A DNA stretch of 37,654 nucleotides from a virus (IMGVR_UViG_3300014774_000003:1-37654); one strand, 5' to 3'; shown: positions 14,010-23,042, counted from the first letter of the stretch. A program made the numbers and translations. The notes: generated by a model from the letters alone, not told the origin.

Positions 14010-14996
14010 TTAATCCAACCTATTTGCAATCTCTGATGCAGTTGCATTGTAATAAATCATCAGGCTTCTTAAATCCTTATGCCCGATCATCCGCGCCAAA
14101 TCCAATACTTCCAATTTCTGAGCAAGCCTTGTGCATGCTTCATGTCTTGAGTCGTGAAAATGTAAATCCTCAATTTCACACTTATCTCGCAACTTTCTCC
14201 AAAGTGTATCAAAGCTCGAATCTTTCACCGTAAATACCTGATGACTGCCAACACCTTTCATAAGCTCAAGCAATTCAACAGCACGCTTGGACAGAGGTAC
14301 ATGTCGTTTTGTTCCATTCTTGGTTTCATTCAAAGTCACATATCTATTCTTTAAATAAACCCGATCCCAAGTCAGGCCGCGAATTTCACCAGCACGCATT
14401 GCAGTTTCAATCGCCAAAAGAAAAGCAATCATAATTTGCTGTGTAAAATTCTCGGGTGCCTGATCATCAAACTCAGCAGCCAGACAAAGCCTGTAAATTT
14501 CATCCTCCGATATACGTCTATCTCGATGTGCTGGCGGTGGTGGCATCTTTAAATCACTCATGGGTGAATCATAAACCCACTTCCATTCCGTGCGCGCTAC
14601 TGTAAACAAGGCTGACAGTATGTTGCCCTCACGTCGTACCGAGGCCGGCTTGACTGTTTTTAATCTGGTATCACGCCACACCACAAAATCATCAGTCGTA
14701 ATTTTAGCAATATGTTTTTTGGCAATCTTTGGGAAGTTTCTCTGGAATGCTCGGAATCTCTTAATCTCTGCATCACAGCCTTTGTGCTTTGGACACACTT
14801 CTTCTATGTATCTATCAATTGCACAATTTAATGTATAATCAGGAAGCTTTCCGCGTGATAACTCTCTTAATTCAGTTTCACGTTTTGATGCCCATGCGCG
14901 AGCCTGAGTCTTAGTGTCGAATGTCGCACTTTCCCGAGTACCATTCACACTAATCTCAACTCGCCAAGCATCACCCCTTTGTCTAAAGGTGGCCAT
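14010..14996 (-). CDS. int: Tyrosine integrase
   Basis: 328 aa. MATFRQRGDAWRVEISVNG N-terminal arm/SAM-like region. Catalytic boxes AGEIRGLTW, HFHDSRHEACTRL and GHKDLRSLMIYY. Confidence 0.9.
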   Translation of the reverse strand: MATFRQRGDAWRVEISVNGTRESATFDTKTQARAWASKRETELRELSRGKLPDYTLNCAIDRYIEEVCPKHKGCDAEIKRFRAFQRNFPKIAKKHIAKITTDDFVVWRDTRLKTVKPASVRREGNILSALFTVARTEWKWVYDSPMSDLKMPPPPAHRDRRISEDEIYRLCLAAEFDDQAPENFTQQIMIAFLLAIETAMRAGEIRGLTWDRVYLKNRYVTLNETKNGTKRHVPLSKRAVELLELMKGVGSHQVFTVKDSSFDTLWRKLRDKCEIEDLHFHDSRHEACTRLAQKLEVLDLARMIGHKDLRSLMIYYNATASEIANRLD

Positions 14997-15017
14997 AAAT
15001 TCTCTCTCAAAATGTCG

Positions 15018-15245
15018 TGGCGTAAATTTGGCGTAATCAATATAGAATGAATAATAGGGAATAATAAGGAAACATTAAACTATTTAATTAATGAGCCACA
15101 CTTAAACCTATAAAATTAAAGAAAAAATAAGGAAAACTAGGGAATAATAAGGAAACCGCAAATTTCGGAAAGTGCCCGCTGAGCGCACCACTACTACCTA
15201 TAAAATCAATAACTTATAATACCTTTGGCGTAATTCTGGCGTAAT
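15018..15245. other. Repeat-rich candidate attP / int regulatory region
   Basis: TGGCGTAA occurs four times as two 11-bp-spaced pairs (15018, 15029; 15226, 15237). The 19-mer TAGGGAATAATAAGGAAAC occurs twice (15055, 15138), with a partial copy at 15126. ACCTATAAAAT occurs twice (15106, 15196). A GC-rich island CCCGCTGAGCGCACCA lies at 15175..15190. Confidence 0.45.
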
Positions 15246-15260
15246 CCATATTTTAATCAA

Positions 15261-15286
15261 GAAAAACCCCGCTATATTTTGCGGGG
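15261..15286 (-). terminator. Intrinsic terminator at the end of the Xis-like gene
   Basis: The minus strand reads CCCCGC-AAAATATA-GCGGGG followed by TTTTTC. Confidence 0.6.
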
Positions 15287-15538
15287 TCTGCCTACTGCTT
15301 TTTTTAAATCTTCCGGCCTGCTTTCCAACCAGTCAGATAATTTTTTAAGGTTCCATCTTCGGCCTTTTGTGGTTTCTGTAATGTATCTTGGTTTTGGAAA
15401 ACCTTTCAAGCAAATAATGGATGATTTGAAATACACACCACCATATCCTAAAAATTCTGCCGCCTGATCATCTGTCAACCAAATGTCTGAAGGTGGCAGG
15501 GCAACAATAAAGTTACCCATATTTGCCATTGCTGTCAT
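15272..15538 (-). CDS. Excisionase-like small DNA-binding protein
   Basis: 88 aa. WLTDDQAAEFLGYGGVYF is HTH-like, with a basic tail GRPRKI. Lies immediately upstream of int and is ATGA-coupled. Confidence 0.5.
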   Translation of the reverse strand: MTAMANMGNFIVALPPSDIWLTDDQAAEFLGYGGVYFKSSIICLKGFPKPRYITETTKGRRWNLKKLSDWLESRPEDLKKAVGRPRKI

Positions 15539-15867
15539 TGATTCACCTCCAATCTTCTACCTGCTTTGATTTCCGCATCTGTGGCGTGGCGAACTCTATC
15601 CAGAGCCACATGACCGTAATCACTTTCAGATTCAAAAAAATGTAAATCCATTTTCTCGCTATATGCGTCATACGTATAAATTTCAGAAAATTGGTCAGGC
15701 CTTTTTAAAACCACCTTATCCCCAACCTCAAAAATATTGTGCTGGCGGCGGTATTCGAGAAGTTGCTTGTCCAGCTCATCGTAATTTAAAAAGTTCAAAA
15801 GTTTCACGGGTGCATTGGCTTCAGCTTTAGCGCACCCATACCCACCCAATTGCTCAATTAGATTCAA
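15535..15867 (-). CDS. Hypothetical protein
   Basis: TTG start overlaps the upstream TGA, with a GGAGA SD. No motif recognised. Confidence 0.5.
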   Translation of the reverse strand: MNLIEQLGGYGCAKAEANAPVKLLNFLNYDELDKQLLEYRRQHNIFEVGDKVVLKRPDQFSEIYTYDAYSEKMDLHFFESESDYGHVALDRVRHATDAEIKAGRRLEVNQ

Positions 15868-16226
15868 GACACTTCTCCCAACGACTTCACCACACCACTC
15901 GGCAACCCAAACACATCTTTAAAAGCCTTATCAAATTCACCGCTTGCAATGAATTGATCAATATCAGAACTTGGATGGTCGTGCTCCTTTATATAACTGC
16001 TCAATGCTTGATATATACCGTTTGAATTTCCCTTTGTTACACCGACATGAATCTTGTCACCGATGTTCTTGACTGGAAATCCAACATCAAGATTTGAAGC
16101 ATCAATGATTTCCATAAATGGCACGAATTCGTCCTGATTAAAAATCAGATCAAATGGCATTTCTTTATGCAGCTCATCACAAACATAGTTCGCCAATTGA
16201 AGTTTGGTTAATTGAATTTCAGTCAT
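15864..16226 (-). CDS. Hypothetical protein
   Basis: GGAGGA SD sits 8 nt before ATG 16226 (MTEIQLTKLQ...). Overlaps the upstream stop by 8 nt. Confidence 0.55.
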   Translation of the reverse strand: MTEIQLTKLQLANYVCDELHKEMPFDLIFNQDEFVPFMEIIDASNLDVGFPVKNIGDKIHVGVTKGNSNGIYQALSSYIKEHDHPSSDIDQFIASGEFDKAFKDVFGLPSGVVKSLGEVS

Positions 16227-16725
16227 TGGCTTCATCCTCCACATCAGCTTTTCGATACTCACTACCCAGAATCTCAATAGCTACTGGTGCAACCTTTAGC
16301 GATGTTTCGAACTTAAAATATTCGCCCTTTTTCCAAGACAAACCATAACCAGAACCCCAAGGCAAAACTTCTTCAGCCAGAATAATCTTATTCAGCTCGT
16401 CGTAGGTCATGGACCTTGGCTTCATGGCATCATATTCAGCCTTGTGCTCCTTGGCAGTAGCGCGAGGCAAAATAGCTAAATAACCACTTTTATGCTTTGA
16501 TGTTTTCCATTTTGTTTTATCAATTTCAGCCTTTGGGTCTGCTGACATATTGAAGAAACGAAGACCATTTTGAATGCTGTCATGTGTTTGGTGCATCTCA
16601 AAACCATAGTGCTTACAGAGCTTTGTGACTTGCTCATAAAAGGCATCGCGTTTATCCATGAAGGCATCAATTTTTGCCAAGGTTTCAGCATCTTCAATTT
16701 TGTAAAAACAAGTTTGCTTAGTCAT
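16219..16725 (-). CDS. Hypothetical protein
   Basis: AGGAG SD precedes ATG 16725 (MTKQTCFYKIE...). Has the same GCCAATGACT junction as the next gene. Confidence 0.55.
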   Translation of the reverse strand: MTKQTCFYKIEDAETLAKIDAFMDKRDAFYEQVTKLCKHYGFEMHQTHDSIQNGLRFFNMSADPKAEIDKTKWKTSKHKSGYLAILPRATAKEHKAEYDAMKPRSMTYDELNKIILAEEVLPWGSGYGLSWKKGEYFKFETSLKVAPVAIEILGSEYRKADVEDEAND

Positions 16726-17086
16726 TGGCTGGCTCCTGTGCTTCACTGACATTGAAATAAGCATTAATTTCACAGCCTAAATTATGCGCATACCCTCTAG
16801 CTTCAAAGCACTCAGGGCAACCGTATTGCTCGGCATAATTGGCCATGTGGCCCCATTGGCTCATTTGCTCAGCAGAAACCAAAACAAAACCCTCAGGCAC
16901 CGCTTGGGCTTCCTTGACATCCAAGTGCAACATGCCAATACATGCGCACCAAGTCGTCCACTGGCGGTTAATGCTCTCAACACCATCTCCGGTGTATAGC
17001 TTTTTATCTTCATCAAAGCCAAACAGTTTTGCTTTTGGGTGCATCCCTTCAAAATCACCACGTCTTAAGTCAATTTGAATATCCAT
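16718..17086 (-). CDS. Hypothetical protein
   Basis: TGATG overlap with the upstream gene, with a GAGGTGGTG SD. Confidence 0.55.
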   Translation of the reverse strand: MDIQIDLRRGDFEGMHPKAKLFGFDEDKKLYTGDGVESINRQWTTWCACIGMLHLDVKEAQAVPEGFVLVSAEQMSQWGHMANYAEQYGCPECFEARGYAHNLGCEINAYFNVSEAQEPAND

Positions 17087-17316
17087 CACACCACCTCAAA
17101 AGGCTTATATTTCTTAAATTCTTCAAACAATTGAGTCGCTGGCTTGTTCAATCGGCCAGTGCCTGCAATCACCACATCACGCGGAAAGTTCTTATTCACC
17201 ACTTCACAAAAGAAGCGAACGCCATGCTGATTGACCGTTGCTCTGTAACCAATGCTAAGCAGCCAGATAATGAATGCTTCAGTCATGAGCGGATGGACTA
17301 GGGTTGGTTTTTTCAT
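17086..17316 (-). CDS. Hypothetical protein
   Basis: AGGAGG SD. ATGA overlap with the exo stop. Confidence 0.55.
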   Translation of the reverse strand: MKKPTLVHPLMTEAFIIWLLSIGYRATVNQHGVRFFCEVVNKNFPRDVVIAGTGRLNKPATQLFEEFKKYKPFEVV

Positions 17317-17930
17317 GCTGCCACCTCCTTTGGATTCAGCTCATAAATGATCTGATCAATTTTTTGATTAAACTTAATCACTGACTGTTCAATTCCCGCG
17401 ATATCCAAATCCTCTGCATTCACCCGGATAACCACCAACTGCAAATGCTCAGGCAGGCGAGGGTCGTAGCTCACAAAGTCACACCACTTGCGACGAGTGC
17501 AGGCCAATTGCCAGGTGATCTGTGGCACATATTCATTTGGAACCTCACCGGTTAAAACGGTATTCAAATGAGTCTGGGAACTTGGACACTTCACCTCCAG
17601 TTGCCCATCTTGATCAACCAGACCATCAGGACTTGCACCACTCATTTTGATAGCCGGGTGATCAATCAGGCCTGTGCCAACTACAAAATTACCGGTTTCA
17701 TTTTCATAAGCTGCAATCGCATAAGGTTCTTGATCAATACCCCATTGCATCAGGCTATTGGTTTTGGTTTCCTCCTGAACGCCGGTTAGGCGCTCAGTCA
17801 GAATTGTTAGGGTTAAGGCATTGTGAGCCTTACCTTTAACTGGTTTGGCATCGATATCCTTGATTCGGCTTGCAGTGATTTTTCCGCACCGGTCTGCATG
17901 CCAGTCTTCACTACGCTGGAGAATGGTCAT
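17313..17930 (-). CDS. exo: Exonuclease, YqaJ / lambda Exo-like (PD-(D/E)XK)
   Basis: EDWHADRCGKITASRI N-terminus, and SPDGL ... LEVKCP parallels lambda Exo SPDGL ... LELKCP. Lies directly downstream of bet. Confidence 0.8.
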   Translation of the reverse strand: MTILQRSEDWHADRCGKITASRIKDIDAKPVKGKAHNALTLTILTERLTGVQEETKTNSLMQWGIDQEPYAIAAYENETGNFVVGTGLIDHPAIKMSGASPDGLVDQDGQLEVKCPSSQTHLNTVLTGEVPNEYVPQITWQLACTRRKWCDFVSYDPRLPEHLQLVVIRVNAEDLDIAGIEQSVIKFNQKIDQIIYELNPKEVAA

Positions 17931-18771
17931 AGGTTTCCCCTTGGCGTGCTAAGGCTTGATCTGCGAGTTCAGCAACCGCTTTTAAATTGATTGAATGGCT
18001 CGTCCAGAAGTAATTTTTACAATTGCCTTTTGGTAGGGCCACATAAGCCGCTTGCAATCGTTTTGATCCGAACTGTGCTTCATTTTGAAGGTGTACCAAA
18101 TGCTCGTTTTCAAATTCTTGGTATCCCTCTGGAATCACATTATCAGTCTGGCCTTGCACGGTTTTAATTGTGCCGCTTTCTTGAATACGCTCTGCTTCGT
18201 CCTGGTCGTAAATACCAACAAAACCAAAAGCCAAACGAGCACATTGAATTAAAGCCTTGTGGCGCAAAAAGCGTTTAGGATGTGACTGCCAAGGACCTGC
18301 AAAACCATTAGCGCCCATTGGTTCACGATACACTTCATCCAGATATTCACGAACAACAGTAGGGCGGTCCCGATCCTTGCGATAAATCAGGCAATCCACC
18401 CATTCAGGGCAATCAACCTTGGCTTTATTCATGCGGACCATATTTTCCGAAAACACAAACTCAATGCCGTTCAGGTTTGGATTGCTGTTAATAATTCGGG
18501 ACCAACCATCCACACCGACCACAGGGATAATTCCCTTATTCTTGTCTGGAAATGCATAGATTTCCTTGGTCCATGGATTCAACTTGTATTGACTCGCCAC
18601 AATCATTAATGCGCCCATTTGTGCATCTGAAATTTCCTTATCGGATTTAAATGCAGTCTGGATCAGTGTTTGCTTTAATTCTTGCGGATCAACATTGTGT
18701 AACCCTAAAACTTCAGCAAGTTGAATAATTTGAGCAGCTACTAGGCCTTGGTGTTGTACTGGTGCATTCAT
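17911..18771 (-). CDS. bet: Single-strand annealing recombinase, lambda Bet homologue
   Basis: LNPWTKEIYAFPDKNKGIIPVVGVDGWSRIIN and GPWQSHPKRFLRHKALIQCARLAFGFVGIYDQDEAERI are near-identical to remembered lambda Bet segments. Confidence 0.9.
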   Translation of the reverse strand: MNAPVQHQGLVAAQIIQLAEVLGLHNVDPQELKQTLIQTAFKSDKEISDAQMGALMIVASQYKLNPWTKEIYAFPDKNKGIIPVVGVDGWSRIINSNPNLNGIEFVFSENMVRMNKAKVDCPEWVDCLIYRKDRDRPTVVREYLDEVYREPMGANGFAGPWQSHPKRFLRHKALIQCARLAFGFVGIYDQDEAERIQESGTIKTVQGQTDNVIPEGYQEFENEHLVHLQNEAQFGSKRLQAAYVALPKGNCKNYFWTSHSINLKAVAELADQALARQGETYDHSPA

Positions 18772-18782
18772 GTTCTTATTCC

Positions 18783-19793
18783 TTAAAATATGATTGAAAC
18801 GTGAGGAATGCGACCTTTATAAATCGCAGCCAAGATGCTTTTCGCAAGTTGTTCATTCACACCAGGCAATAAAGCAAGATGCTCAAGTGCTTCCGCACAA
18901 ACCTTCTTTGTGTGAGCCTCATCAGCCAAACGTGCTTCTTCCGCTTTACGCTCAGCCTCAGCTTTGGCAGCCTGTTCAGCCTCAATACGCTTACGTTCAT
19001 TTTCAGCAGCCTGCACGGCACGTAACTCGGCAGCTTCTTTTTCGGCCTTCAATCGAGCTTCACGCTGTTCTGCTTCAGCCTTTTCACGTTGGACACGTGC
19101 AGCTTCAAAACGTGCTTTTTCTTCCGCCTCACGAGTAGCTTTTTCAGCAGCTTCACGGGCAATACGTTCTTCATGTTCACGCTGCAAACGAGCTTGTTCA
19201 GCTTGGCGAAGGCGTTCTAATTCAGCCTGTTCTGCTTCGTATTTTTCACGGGATGCAAGGGCAGTGCGTAGTGCTTCCAGTGTTTCAAATTTGGCAAGCT
19301 TGGCTTGTTCCTCGTATTCCTCAAGGGATGAGTCAAGGGTTTTGCCTTCAAGAGTTGCGATAGCCTCTTTAATAGATATTGAATCCCATTCACCACACAA
19401 CGATGCATGCATGCGAATTACATCAATAAATTGCTCATGCTTCGCCACACGATCCTTTTCAGCCTGCTCCCAAGCATCACGCGGTGCCAAGATTTCATTG
19501 CGAAGTTCATCAAACTTTTTAACAGTCGCAATGCGGTCATCATCAATAACTTTGATTTGGGCCTTTTGTTCAGCGACCAATTCCTTGCCACACTTCTCAA
19601 TAAAAGTCTTGGATTTACTGATTTTCAAAGCAAGTGATCCGATCTGGTCACGGCCTTTTTTAGTGCTCACATCTGGAACATGAGAGCGCGCTTCTTGAGC
19701 AATACGCTCGAATAATTCAGCGGTGCCACCTGGCTTACGGAATGCAGCAACAACAACATTTTGATCTGCAATTTCTAATTCGAATTTTTCCAT
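18783..19793 (-). CDS. Coiled-coil protein with a long E/R/K/A-rich helix (DUF1351-like; occupies the gam position)
   Basis: GAGGTGG SD precedes ATG 19793 (MEKFELEIADQN...). About 100 residues of AEQAELERLRQAEQARLQREHEERIAREAAEK... Confidence 0.55.
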   Translation of the reverse strand: MEKFELEIADQNVVVAAFRKPGGTAELFERIAQEARSHVPDVSTKKGRDQIGSLALKISKSKTFIEKCGKELVAEQKAQIKVIDDDRIATVKKFDELRNEILAPRDAWEQAEKDRVAKHEQFIDVIRMHASLCGEWDSISIKEAIATLEGKTLDSSLEEYEEQAKLAKFETLEALRTALASREKYEAEQAELERLRQAEQARLQREHEERIAREAAEKATREAEEKARFEAARVQREKAEAEQREARLKAEKEAAELRAVQAAENERKRIEAEQAAKAEAERKAEEARLADEAHTKKVCAEALEHLALLPGVNEQLAKSILAAIYKGRIPHVSIIF

Positions 19794-19794
19794 C

Positions 19795-20301
19795 TCAAAC
19801 CACCTCTTCAAATAACTGTTCCGCGTACTCATTCACAAGACGCTGAAATTCCTGAATCTGCTCATCATTCAGCGTAAATGTCTGACCTTCCTCAGCTTCA
19901 AAATTCCAAACATCCAGCAAAGTCACAGGCGTATCTTTCACAACCAGCCAAGAATCAATATCCACTGGCTCATCAAATCGAGCATCCCTATTCGAGCTAC
20001 GCATTTCAGTCATCGTGTGAGGCAATACAGGCATTGAACAATCAGCCGTTGCATACAGGTTTTCACCAATCTGACGATATAAACCAAAGGTCAGCACGTT
20101 ATCTTCAATCGAAATATCAGAATCAACCTTGAAACTTGGCAGGTCTGAAAAGTACAAATCACGGGTGAAATCTTCATTTACCTTGCAGTCAGTTACCTTG
20201 GTGCTATGACCATCACGGCACAGGAATAAGGACTGGTTTCCGATGTGGCTAATAGGTCGCATTGCCGCACCACATCCACAGAATTGAGCGTAAGTATTCA
20301 T
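19795..20301 (-). CDS. Hypothetical protein (Cys-rich N-terminus)
   Basis: ATGA-coupled. FCGCG ... LFLCRDGH suggests a zinc ribbon. Confidence 0.5.
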   Translation of the reverse strand: MNTYAQFCGCGAAMRPISHIGNQSLFLCRDGHSTKVTDCKVNEDFTRDLYFSDLPSFKVDSDISIEDNVLTFGLYRQIGENLYATADCSMPVLPHTMTEMRSSNRDARFDEPVDIDSWLVVKDTPVTLLDVWNFEAEEGQTFTLNDEQIQEFQRLVNEYAEQLFEEVV

Positions 20302-20645
20302 TTCACACCCCCTACAATCGCAGCATTAATCTTTTCAATCTCATAACGATCAACATAGGCATTAATCGTCTTGTCAAAATGCACCACATTCAAAATGTCC
20401 AGAAACTCAACAGAAGCATCGTCCAAGGCATATTCAACATAGATGCTGTAATCGTCAGCCTTAACAGTAGCGATGCAGGTTTCATGGCAAGTACGTTTAA
20501 GCACTTCATATTTTTGAGCGGTGATAACCACTTGAGGATTATCATCAGCGACTTTGGCAGGCTGGAAAGCGTAAGCTACTGCTATCCCCGCGCTGATTGA
20601 TGCTGCAATTAATGCAGACTTGAGAATATTGAATTTAGTTGTCAT
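20298..20645 (-). CDS. Secreted or membrane-anchored small protein
   Basis: GGAGG sits 5 nt before ATG 20645. Signal-peptide-like MTTKFNILKSALIAASISAGIAVAYA. Confidence 0.55.
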   Translation of the reverse strand: MTTKFNILKSALIAASISAGIAVAYAFQPAKVADDNPQVVITAQKYEVLKRTCHETCIATVKADDYSIYVEYALDDASVEFLDILNVVHFDKTINAYVDRYEIEKINAAIVGGVK

Positions 20646-21138
20646 GGCTGCCTCCAAGCTTAAACTTAGGCAGCGGGATTGGTTGATTTGCATGAAAGGC
20701 ATCAATCATTTCTTGAGTGACAGCAATTTCTTCATCGTGATCAATTTCCCAGAAAGAGACATTCAGATGTTTTTCAGCCCAAGCTTTTAAGGAGTTGCTC
20801 AATTCAGCTTTTGCTTCATCACCAACACTATCCGATCCTGTATTACCATCAGTGAAATCACCCGGATAATTGTCATAAATGCGCAGGTCGTAATTTTCCA
20901 AAACTTCATCAGCATCCATGATGAATTGAGTAGGTGATGGCTGGCGCTTGATACCAGTAAGGAAGGTGTTGCCAACCTCTAATACGTCGTCATCAAGCAT
21001 GTCTGCCAAAGCTTCAGCAGGATTTTCATAGTCAGACCAATTATCTTCACCGCGATAGCTGAAAACTCGATCAGCATTCAACTTGCCTTCATCAACTTTT
21101 GTATTCATAATAATTTCACTCACTGTACGGTGGGTCAT
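20635..21138 (-). CDS. Highly acidic early protein (first gene of the leftward operon)
   Basis: D/E-rich throughout. Alternative start at ATG 21108 (MNTKVDEGK...). Confidence 0.5.
   Translation of the reverse strand: MTHRTVSEIIMNTKVDEGKLNADRVFSYRGEDNWSDYENPAEALADMLDDDVLEVGNTFLTGIKRQPSPTQFIMDADEVLENYDLRIYDNYPGDFTDGNTGSDSVGDEAKAELSNSLKAWAEKHLNVSFWEIDHDEEIAVTQEMIDAFHANQPIPLPKFKLGGSHDN
21083..21111 (+). promoter_or_regulatory. Candidate sigma70 promoter for a small antisense RNA
   Basis: TTGCCT (21083..21088), 17-nt spacer, CATAAT (21106..21111), on the strand opposite all surrounding genes. Confidence 0.35.
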
Positions 21139-21179
21139 GCCTCAGGTTGTTACAGCAACGCTGGGGCTTTTCTTTGTTT
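21118..21179 (+). ncRNA. Candidate ~55-60-nt antisense RNA covering the SD and ATG 21138 of the first PL gene
   Basis: Strong plus-oriented intrinsic terminator: GCCTCAG(GTTG-TTACAG-CAAC)gCTGGGGC at 21139..21167, then TTTTCTTTGTTT. No plus-strand gene lies upstream. A promoter sits about 30 nt upstream. Confidence 0.4.
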
Positions 21180-21189
21180 CGATGAAATT

Positions 21190-21219
21190 AATATAACTTA
21201 AGTTATAAAGAAGTGTCAA
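21190..21219 (-). promoter_or_regulatory. PL-like early leftward promoter with palindromic operator
   Basis: Minus strand TTGACA (21219..21214), 18-nt spacer, TATATT (21195..21190). The perfect palindrome TATAACTTAAGTTATA at 21192..21207 overlaps the spacer and -10. Confidence 0.6.
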
Positions 21220-21264
21220 TAACATAGAGAATATTATTTATAATATTTGTTATAACGGTTGTAA

Positions 21265-21305: not shown

Positions 21306-22028
21306 TTACATTGATCCGCCCTTCCAGCAGATGCGACCTTCAATTTCTATTTTTTCTCTAATTTCTTCTAGTGACAGTATGATGTCTGGATACTGAACCT
21401 TGTCCGGATTGTCCGATCTGATTACCCAGTGCGTCACCATATTGATAAGGCGTTTCACATAATATTGCTCATCAATACACAGGAAATAAACCTTATTTGA
21501 TTTTGGTGTGTTGTCGTGTGGATTAACTAAAAGCACCTGACCATCTTCAATAGAAGGGTACATGCTTTCGCCTTTCGCATAGATCACACGCAGATCATCT
21601 GGATTAGGTAAGCCTTGCTCTCTAATCCACTGTCGACTAAATACGAGACCACCCTTAACCTCCACACTGTCTATGATAGAGCCACCGCCACATGAGCCAT
21701 AGATATCAAACTGAGGAACAAGAATATATTCATCAACGCTTGGCTTTTCACCTGGGTTTTCACCACCGACCACAACAAAGTCATTAAGGCTTCCAGACTG
21801 CTTCTTTATGTACTCTTTCCCATAGATCAGATAATCCACTGAGGTATTTAAAGCCTTCGCTACCTGAGCAATATATTTTGAGTTATCAGTCTCATTATTC
21901 TCAATTTTAGAAATAGCGGCTTGCGACACCTCTGACTTTTTAGCCAGTGCCGATTGTGACAATCCCAATCTAGTGCGTGCCTCTCTAACTCGATCACCAC
22001 AAGTTAAACCAACCATAAGAAGACCCAT
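21306..22028 (-). CDS. cI: CI-like repressor (XRE HTH plus S24 LexA-type autopeptidase)
   Basis: HTH LGLSQSALAKKSEVSQAAISKIE. S24 Ser in GESMYP and Lys in YYVKRL. Divergent from cro. Confidence 0.9.
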   Translation of the reverse strand: MGLLMVGLTCGDRVREARTRLGLSQSALAKKSEVSQAAISKIENNETDNSKYIAQVAKALNTSVDYLIYGKEYIKKQSGSLNDFVVVGGENPGEKPSVDEYILVPQFDIYGSCGGGSIIDSVEVKGGLVFSRQWIREQGLPNPDDLRVIYAKGESMYPSIEDGQVLLVNPHDNTPKSNKVYFLCIDEQYYVKRLINMVTHWVIRSDNPDKVQYPDIILSLEEIREKIEIEGRICWKGGSM

Positions 22029-22139: not shown

Positions 22140-22358
22140 ATGAATTGGGAATCGATTATTAATCAATTGTTGGAAAAGATGACCCAAAAGGAATTAGCGG
22201 CTTTGGCTGGTTGTTCTCAGCCGTTTATCTCTTTGCTGTCATCTGGTCAGCGAAAGAATGTGGATTATGAAACAGGGCAGAAACTTATTTCTCTTTGCGT
22301 AATTCATGAAGTTGAAACCACCAGAAACGAGAAAGCCCCAGCTACCGCAAATAGCTAG
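22140..22358 (+). CDS. cro: Cro-like HTH regulator
   Basis: 72 aa. MTQKELAALAGCSQPFISLLSSGQR HTH. AAGGAAGG SD. Divergent from cI. Confidence 0.75.
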   Translation: MNWESIINQLLEKMTQKELAALAGCSQPFISLLSSGQRKNVDYETGQKLISLCVIHEVETTRNEKAPATANS

Positions 22359-22365
22359 GGCTTTT
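22337..22365 (+). terminator. Weak terminator-like hairpin at the end of cro
   Basis: CCC-AGCTA-CCGCAAA-TAGCT-a-GGG followed by CTTTTGTG. The stem is imperfect. Confidence 0.3.
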
Positions 22366-22391
22366 GTGTCTAAATCCTAGGAGATTCAAAC

Positions 22392-23042
22392 ATGAATATG
22401 TTAGCACAATTTTCTACAAATCAAGCCAGTATGTCAAGTCGAGATTTGCTCGACCTGATTAATCAAGTTCGATCTGATCTGGGCGAACCATTACTTCGCC
22501 TAAATAGTTTTAACTTGAAAATTGAGGATGAGCTTGATGGAGAGAACTACACAAAAAATGTAGTTCAAAATTTCAACAATACAGAGTCAGTTGTTTTTGA
22601 ATTAACAATTGACCAATGCATGCTGATTGGCATGCGTGAATCGAAAGCGGTTCGCAAAAATGTACTGGCGATTCTGAAGCAAAAGCAGTTACCTCAATCT
22701 TTTTCCGAAGCCCTTCAACTGGCAGCCGACCAAGCCCGCCAATTAGAACTCGCAGCACCCAAAGTCCAATACTTTGACACAGTAGTCGAGCGCTCAACAC
22801 TTCTAAACGCTACCCAAGTTGCTCAAAAGCTCGGCATGTCAGCTATGGCAATGAATAAACACCTTGATCAACTGAATGTCTACAGCCGTGGCGTTAAGCG
22901 TGCACGTGTATTCCAGCAATGGTTTATTGATAAAGGCTTTGGTGAGCTTAAGCAAACCGAGCTTGGCTTTTCGCAACCAATGTTCACCACAAAAGGCGAG
23001 GCTTGGGTTATCGAGAAGTTGGTTGGTGAGGGGGTGGCGTAA
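22392..23042 (+). CDS. Antirepressor-type regulator (Rha-like N-terminus, KilA-C / ANT-like C-terminus)
   Basis: MSSRDLLDLINQVR is Rha-like. APKVQYFDTVVERSTLLNATQVAQKLGMSAMAMNKHL is KilAC-like. AGGAG SD. Confidence 0.6.
   Translation: MNMLAQFSTNQASMSSRDLLDLINQVRSDLGEPLLRLNSFNLKIEDELDGENYTKNVVQNFNNTESVVFELTIDQCMLIGMRESKAVRKNVLAILKQKQLPQSFSEALQLAADQARQLELAAPKVQYFDTVVERSTLLNATQVAQKLGMSAMAMNKHLDQLNVYSRGVKRARVFQQWFIDKGFGELKQTELGFSQPMFTTKGEAWVIEKLVGEGVA

Follow-up and report, generated by a model that had tools for sequence, protein, structure and literature searches.

The cis-antisense RNA sar of phage P22 is 68/69 nt long, consists of two hairpins of which the second is the terminator, and blocks translation of its target (PMC12197685). 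The OOP RNA of phage lambda, 77 nt long and constitutive, lowers early-gene expression through duplex formation and RNase III-dependent decay (PMC5415839; PMC12197685). A further RNA, STnc6030 of the Salmonella prophage BTP1, is antisense to a phage mRNA and excludes superinfecting related phages (PMC12197685). A 2025 review of phage small RNAs includes none from Acinetobacter or other Moraxellaceae, and none that lies opposite a PL leader (PMC12197685). Our own search of the literature found no antisense RNA of Acinetobacter prophages and no transcript data for the phages considered below. Short antisense transcripts of doubtful function are pervasive in A. baumannii, and this was counted against the proposal made here.

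The stretch of DNA analysed, termed the window, is a complete virus record of 37,654 bp with a lambdoid layout. Its host genus is Acinetobacter, and a 97%-identical version of its first PL gene is present in A. idrijaensis. Positions 21083-21179 of the window probably form a self-contained plus-strand small-RNA gene, convergent with PL and antisense to the ribosome-binding site of the first PL gene. The core of this idea had been put forward in an initial annotation, namely a cis-antisense RNA transcribed from a promoter within the first gene's 5' portion, with a terminator abutting PL and a sar-like way of working, and comparative evidence from related sequences now argues for such an RNA.

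The left early promoter itself, TTGACA-18-TATATT (21219-21190, minus strand), is an 11/12 match and the top promoter match of the 14-kb region scanned, with a predicted +1 at 21183. It overlaps a 16-bp operator palindrome, TATAACTTAAGTTATA, at 21192-21207; a second copy is located at PR (22110), and beyond these two the window holds no further copy. A cI/Cro operator at the antisense promoter was looked for in the window and none is present. The cI-like repressor gene (HTH plus S24; 21306-22028, minus strand) has its own terminator. Downstream of PL, a run of minus-strand genes that includes RecT and a YqaJ exonuclease continues unbroken to 14010. Consistent with the earlier statement that the genes upstream of the antisense terminator are all on the minus strand, every long ORF from 14010 to 21108 is on that strand. 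The two predicted start sites, at 21183 for PL and at 21118 for the antisense promoter, are convergent and 65 bp apart, and only 4-8 bp separate the end of the antisense terminator from the PL +1. In some relatives a GGDEF diguanylate cyclase (PF00990, E = 5e-35) or a DUF3800 protein (E = 6e-24) is encoded beyond PL, on the PL strand. Carriers are loci L086, L162, L031, L159, L137 and L062, in the slot between repressor and PL, and the L119 group. This slot is the one in which the window has cI and lambda has rexAB.

The first PL gene encodes an acidic protein of 157 aa (phrog_1672), and the position of its start codon determines what an antisense RNA could cover. Its start had been placed at ATG 21138, behind a GAGG Shine-Dalgarno sequence, and the RNA had been thought to span both. 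These letters are present in the window, but they are no start site. All relatives of the acidic protein start with MNTKVDEG at the equivalent of ATG 21108. At the position of ATG 21138 they carry GTG, CTG, CCG, ACG or TTG, and in one relative a 2-nt indel between the equivalents of the two ATGs breaks the frame. ATG 21138 with GAGG was rejected as the gene start on these grounds, the lack of conservation of the triplet and the frame-breaking indel. On the plus strand the same triplet is the variable 3-nt linker between the two predicted hairpins (CAT, 21136-21138), the reverse complement of the non-functional ATG; in relatives the linker reads CAT, CAC, CAG, CGG, CGT or CAA. Because ATG 21108 is conserved and ATG 21138 corresponds to a variable linker, the first PL gene is 20635-21108 (minus strand), and the practical outcome is a corrected start at 21108. 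The true Shine-Dalgarno sequence is GAGU in the window and GGAGU in distant relatives. The slot that this gene occupies (20635-21108 in the window; loci L001-L225) is a swap site for at least nine unrelated small proteins, among them acidic proteins, lipoproteins with a lipobox, exported proteins and others, several of which share only the first 9-10 codons.

Pattern searches of viral contigs yielded 61 loci, among which the plus-strand RNA region occurs in 46 distinct versions, and a covariance model, R1, was built from the pattern-found loci. The window contains one R1 match of 79 bits, and the next-best scores no more than 12.7 bits. Among 151 sampled Acinetobacter species genomes, 21 carry 31 copies between them, up to 3 per genome. 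In Moraxellaceae, copies were found in 11 of 151 genomes, the divergent ones scoring 39-58 bits. In all, the block of about 105 bp is present at more than 100 Moraxellaceae phage or prophage loci. The weakest R1 match, at 31.9 bits, is locus L225 (G183:C13), which has a terminator-like hairpin and a T-run without the CATAAT/TTG promoter; it is probably an unrelated terminator and gives a lower bound to the specificity of R1. Neither blastn nor tblastn against a phage collection returned a relevant match, the block being in no annotated cultured-phage record, and neither the element of the window nor the loci of 20 relatives gave a match to any Rfam family.

The candidate antisense promoter comprises a -35 hexamer TTGCCT (21083-21088, plus strand) inside codons 7-9 of the first PL gene and, after a 17-nt spacer, a -10 hexamer CATAAT (21106-21111, plus strand) over the start codon of that gene, the CAT of the -10 being the reverse complement of ATG 21108-21106. 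In the window alone this is a 9/12 match, and 19 such sites occur in 14 kb against 30 expected from shuffles. The match by itself is not above chance, and any significance comes from the relatives only. What had been called a good promoter at 21083-21111 thus stands in part: hexamers and spacer are at those coordinates and are conserved in relatives, but the match taken alone is at chance level. In silico, a separate promoter is predicted opposite the target in unrelated coding contexts: of 63 non-redundant loci, 62 have a TTGnnn at a distance of 17-18 nt from the -10, which is CATAAT in 59 of the 63 and CATACT in 4. The same two -10 variants account for 30/30 covariance-model copies in genomes and for 13/13 divergent copies. 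Information content over the 63 loci, anchored at the predicted +1, is below 0.8 bit upstream of -36, reaches 2.0, 1.5 and 1.4 bits at -35 to -33 (TTG) and is 1.6-2.0 bits at -14 to -7 (TTCATAAT). The predicted +1 is an A, 7 nt after the -10, in all copies. A. baumannii RpoD recognises canonical -10/-35 motifs, and A is its commonest start nucleotide (PMC6182133).

The reading frame that overlaps the -35 offers a further comparison. Although codon 8 of the first gene may stand for G, H, Y, S, F or I, its last base is kept as C and the next two bases as AA; the resulting CAA across codons 8/9 is the TTG of the antisense strand. At loci with an 18-nt spacer the TTG falls in another codon phase (AGT CAA). 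The TTG is thus kept as nucleotides and not as amino acids. Four unrelated first proteins have only codons 1-9/10 in common (MNTKVDEGK) and then diverge, which places a mosaic junction just past the -35. Copies found by the model, rather than by the pattern, have TTGACT-18, TTGAGA-17, TTGAAT and TTGATT. The 13 divergent copies precede yet other genes and have TTGACA-17-CATACT, TTGACG-18-CATACT, TTGACT-17, TTGCAA-18 and TTGTAA-18 as well as TTGCTG-17, TTGCGG-17, GTGACA-17 and ATGACA-17. Judged as predicted promoters, some of these, e.g. TTGACA-17-CATACT and TTGACG-18-CATACT, have better hexamers than the window. Two limits apply to these comparisons. Because -10 and start codon overlap in every case, the conservation of the -10 is inseparable from that of the translation start signal. 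The first nine codons may also be homologous remnants across several gene families, in which case the coding contexts are fewer than the gene families.

Downstream of the promoter two hairpins are predicted. The 5' hairpin, ACUCACU-GUAC-GGUGGGU by folding, begins at the predicted +1, A21118, and extends to 21135 (plus strand), its 5' arm being complementary to the Shine-Dalgarno region. In the terminator hairpin (21139-21167, plus strand) a one-base bulge separates an outer stem of 7 bp from an inner stem of 5 bp, which closes a loop of 4 nt; the hairpin is followed by the U-run TTTTCTTTGTTT (21168-21179, plus strand), with 10 U in 12 nt. On the plus strand this hairpin folds at -17.5 kcal/mol (z = -3.7, with 0/200 shuffles as good), compared with -12.5 kcal/mol on the minus strand, and the strong plus-oriented terminator reported earlier at 21139-21179 is therefore confirmed at those coordinates. 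On the minus strand the hairpin is followed by CATGACCC, and for this reason it is no terminator for PL. Stem-loop and U-run thus make up an intrinsic terminator on the plus strand, the strand that would be transcribed. The TTTTnnTTGT after the hairpin is conserved among the 63 non-redundant loci. The 3' end is predicted near 21174-21177, giving an RNA of about 57-60 nt. The length of about 55-60 nt first proposed agrees with this prediction, from 21118 to 21174-21177, and with a conserved block that runs from the -35 to the U-run. Fold, U-run and conservation with covariation all point to a defined 3' end at an intrinsic terminator and to a short RNA.

Covariation was assessed in three alignments, A1 from the pattern search and A2 and A3 from covariance-model sets; the latter are free of the pattern bias of A1 but are fitted to the model structure. 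With the two-hairpin structure placed on A1, 98.9% of cells are paired, the invariance of the outer stem of the 5' hairpin and of GGGGCT being partly imposed by the search pattern and filter. None of 500 shuffles reaches the observed values for cells paired, cells changed on both sides or covariation score, and pairing falls to 34-46% when the 3' partners are slid. Changes on both sides are seen in A1 at pair 7-17 of the 5' hairpin (AU 27, UG 13, UA 3, GU 2) and, in the terminator, at pairs 33-53 (GC 37, AU 8) and 36-49 (AU 20, UA 19, GC 7). Columns 29/30 of the terminator toggle between C and U, always opposite G. The model-found set adds C-G to U-A and U·G to U-A, and at the closing pairs of the 5' hairpin the covariation includes C-G to U-A and A-U to C-G. 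In the divergent set 13 of 18 pairs are changed on both sides, 7 of 11 in the terminator, in an alignment that was fitted to the covariance model and so leans towards the structure. The loop of the 5' hairpin varies in length, from 4 to 11 nt or more. The strands can be told apart by the non-Watson-Crick pairs, all of which are G·U on the plus strand and hence C·A on the PL mRNA. The plus strand keeps 98.9% and 97.9% of pairs, the PL-mRNA strand 86.2% and 85.4%. The fold energies average -24.2 kcal/mol (plus) and -14.6 kcal/mol (PL mRNA), and the plus strand is the stabler in 73/73 variants. Both hairpins are thus selected on the plus strand. The 5' hairpin, which begins exactly at the predicted +1 and covaries, would be unneeded by a bare terminator. 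Two plus-strand peptides were considered and rejected: a 37-aa ORF at 21083-21196, which starts upstream of the predicted +1, and one from ATG 21137, which lies in the variable linker and meets no stop before the terminator.

The limits of conservation coincide with the predicted elements. Over the 63 non-redundant loci it does not exceed background before -36, rises abruptly at the -35 TTG, stays high at TTCATAAT, the +1 A, both stems and the U-run, and is back at background some 25 nt beyond the hairpin, where the PL and operator sequences of the particular immunity region start. The conserved block thus equals the predicted transcription unit, from -35 to U-run. The check on related phages that had been suggested earlier accordingly found both promoter and terminator kept. 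On the PL side of the block, promoter and operator sequences differ, and the longest PL-strand ORF beyond it encodes a different HTH_3 repressor at 8 of the 10 loci tested. The gene side has at least nine unrelated first-gene families in viral contigs, and more in genomes. The cassette is thus portable, tied neither to the immunity region nor to the first gene. At seven viral-contig loci (L017, L186, L187, L190, L191, L194 and L208) the leader is of an unrelated sequence, here called type B. It too has CATAAT over the start codon and a TTG -35; its Shine-Dalgarno sequence is a canonical GAGG. Its single hairpin has compensatory stems (GCCCAG/CTGGGC, GCCCGC/GCGGGC, GCCCCG/CGGGGC) and precedes, on the antisense strand only, 6-8 consecutive T, so that a non-homologous terminator sits in the same place.

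Three other explanations of the block have to be weighed against a small-RNA gene. It could serve the PL transcript itself, as a stabilising 5' hairpin, as a nut- or put-like antitermination signal or in translational control of the first gene. It does lie within the first 75 nt of that transcript, where lambda has nutL, and it is kept between different immunity regions and first genes. Such a sense-strand role is nevertheless highly improbable: about 14% of pairs become C·A on the PL mRNA, the fold there is some 10 kcal/mol weaker in 73/73 variants, the T-run is on the antisense strand only, and a nut or put site would need a second copy behind PR, whereas R1 matches the window once. A nut/put-type leader was excluded on the asymmetry between strands (86% vs 99% of pairs kept) together with the single copy in the window. 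The initial annotation had named a start at ATG 21108, with a hairpin acting only as mRNA leader structure and hexamers not conserved in relatives, as the finding that would speak against an antisense RNA; the start is indeed at 21108, but the hairpin is not a sense-strand leader and the hexamers are conserved.

A role as a terminator only, insulating PL, OL and cI from stray plus-strand read-through, e.g. from the late operon or the host flanks of a prophage, that would be antisense to the whole 7-kb left operon, accounts for a terminator that is strong, conserved and, in type B leaders, swapped for a non-homologous one. The promoter hexamers would then be incidental, which fits a window match at chance level and a -10 confounded with ATTATG. 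This is improbable given that the TTG is kept at 17-18 nt in 62/63 loci over unrelated codons and through the frame shift at the 18-nt spacer, that conservation sets in sharply at the -35, and that the 5' hairpin is conserved on the plus strand; an insulator needs neither that hairpin nor a -35. Transcriptional interference, finally, could be the main function, with polymerase at or from the antisense promoter obstructing initiation or elongation from PL, and the reverse; the RNA would be a by-product, and the terminator would exist only to keep antisense transcription out of PL, OL and cI. The face-to-face starts 65 bp apart, the 4-8 bp between terminator end and PL +1 and the conservation of promoter and terminator alike are all compatible with this, and there is a precedent in coliphage 186, whose pR and pL lie face to face 62 bp apart and interfere transcriptionally. 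As the main function it is nonetheless unlikely, because a 5' hairpin that covaries on the plus strand and starts at +1 indicates selection on the RNA itself, and because complementarity between the RNA 5' end and the Shine-Dalgarno sequence is kept in both subfamilies. The interference and antisense models are compatible, and both may operate.

The antisense reading implies the following course of events. Transcription would start at A21118 from the sigma-70-type promoter TTGCCT-17-CATAAT and would stop at about 21175 at the intrinsic terminator, just short of the PL start at 21183. The product would be a two-hairpin RNA of about 58 nt and a perfect complement of nearly the whole PL 5' untranslated leader. 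This RNA is complementary to about +8 to +66 of the PL mRNA, up to position -10 of the true start codon. The earlier proposal that the RNA covers leader and translation start is accordingly retained for nearly the whole leader, including the true Shine-Dalgarno sequence, but not for the start codon, nor for the supposed GAGG/ATG 21138 start; the start codon lies outside the predicted RNA and overlaps the promoter -10 instead. The 5' end ACUCAC faces GUGAGU, and in the divergent subfamily ACUCC faces a canonical GGAGU, a complementarity that makes the 5' arm of the first hairpin an anti-Shine-Dalgarno sequence. Pairing with the nascent PL mRNA would block 30S binding at the first gene. The duplex of about 60 bp at the mRNA 5' end would probably be an RNase III substrate, exposing the operon to decay or to Rho polarity. 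With the promoters face to face and 65 bp apart, full firing of PL should silence the antisense promoter, and convergent firing would add mutual transcriptional interference. From the pairing block, the decay or polarity and the silencing of the convergent promoter it would follow that the RNA is a threshold brake on leaky or early PL expression, active in lysogens and during establishment and not after full induction.

An additional role in trans can be imagined, in which the RNA of a prophage silences the PL operon of a heteroimmune phage with a matching leader and so provides a layer of cross-immunity. The leader cassette is common to phages with different repressors and operators and reaches 3 copies in a single genome, which is what suggests this role, but it is doubtful. 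By analogy with plasmid antisense-RNA incompatibility groups, hypervariable loops and mosaic exchange of hairpins would then define specificity groups. A search for trans targets in the phage found no complementarity of 12 nt or more elsewhere, the sole 11-mer being the terminator arm of a sar-like element at 22332.

This second element lies in the PR operon. A sar-like antisense RNA (22330-22393, minus strand) matches Rfam RF00262 at 32.7 bits, the gathering threshold being 43, with an E-value of 9e-4 when 5 kb were searched and of 4e-5 in a local search. Its terminator is at 22364-22332 (minus strand), and candidate promoters are at 22437-22395. Its sequence complements both the start and the GGAG Shine-Dalgarno sequence of a gene for an Ant/KilAC antirepressor-like protein (22392-23042), which is located directly downstream of cro, and it lies 1.2 kb from the PL-leader element. 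To judge by these matches, the PR operon seems to contain an embedded sar-ant pair of the P22 immI type. With the PL-leader and sar-like elements in one phage, there would be one antisense RNA facing each early operon. The terminator 3' arm GCTGGGGCTTT is identical in the two, at 21158-21168 (+) and 22332-22342 (+). Because of this identity, 11 nt of the PR transcript immediately downstream of cro are complementary to the PL-leader RNA, a match that is probably a resemblance between terminators only. Descent of the PL-leader element and the sar-like RNA from a common ancestor was also considered, in view of the similar 3' arms, and rejected as undetectable: each covariance model misses the element of the other, and the sar-like element of the window scores only 11 bits with R1.

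If the RNA is made, temperate phages of Acinetobacter and other Moraxellaceae would have an RNA layer added to their lysis-lysogeny switch. A cassette found in about 14% of sampled Acinetobacter species genomes is common enough to warrant an RNA family of its own, and it would offer a handle on the leakiness and induction of prophages where these matter for phage therapy and genome plasticity. The position is without counterpart in the 2025 review (PMC12197685), in that an antisense gene is nested between the PL start and the start codon of the first gene, whose first nine codons carry the predicted antisense promoter, and in that the antisense terminator abuts the opposing promoter.

With P22 sar, the element shares a temperate phage as its carrier, a promoter at the very start of the target gene, two hairpins and pairing with the ribosome-binding region. 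The sar covariance model RF00262 (threshold 43 bits) finds no match at 21050-21230, even at E <= 10. Membership of the sar family was rejected, since there is no Rfam match and the target is the first PL gene, which in relatives belongs to at least nine other families, and not ant. In contrast to sar, the PL-leader element targets the 5' end of the PL transcript and whichever gene comes first; its -10 lies over the start codon, so that the RNA covers the Shine-Dalgarno sequence and not the AUG; its terminator abuts the start of the target promoter, so that the RNA spans the whole leader; and its hosts are Moraxellaceae. The resemblance to lambda OOP consists in a short cis-antisense RNA, in the immunity/early region of a lambdoid phage, that ends at an intrinsic terminator. 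OOP, however, overlaps the 3' end of cII in the PR operon and touches no ribosome-binding site, and it has no sequence or structural similarity to the PL-leader element. The sar/OOP-like geometry that had been claimed thus describes how the RNA would work, like sar and partly like OOP, but not its family. STnc6030 is likewise a prophage antisense RNA and a precedent for an action in trans, but its target is a late tailspike gene and its sequence and position are unrelated. In coliphage 186 a strong lytic promoter faces a weaker one at the lysis-lysogeny switch. The arrangement described here may be analogous, with promoters face to face, 62-65 bp apart, and a strong lytic one opposing a weaker one. 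Both promoters of 186 drive long operons, with no terminator between them, whereas the weaker promoter of the present element would make only a terminated RNA of about 58 nt.
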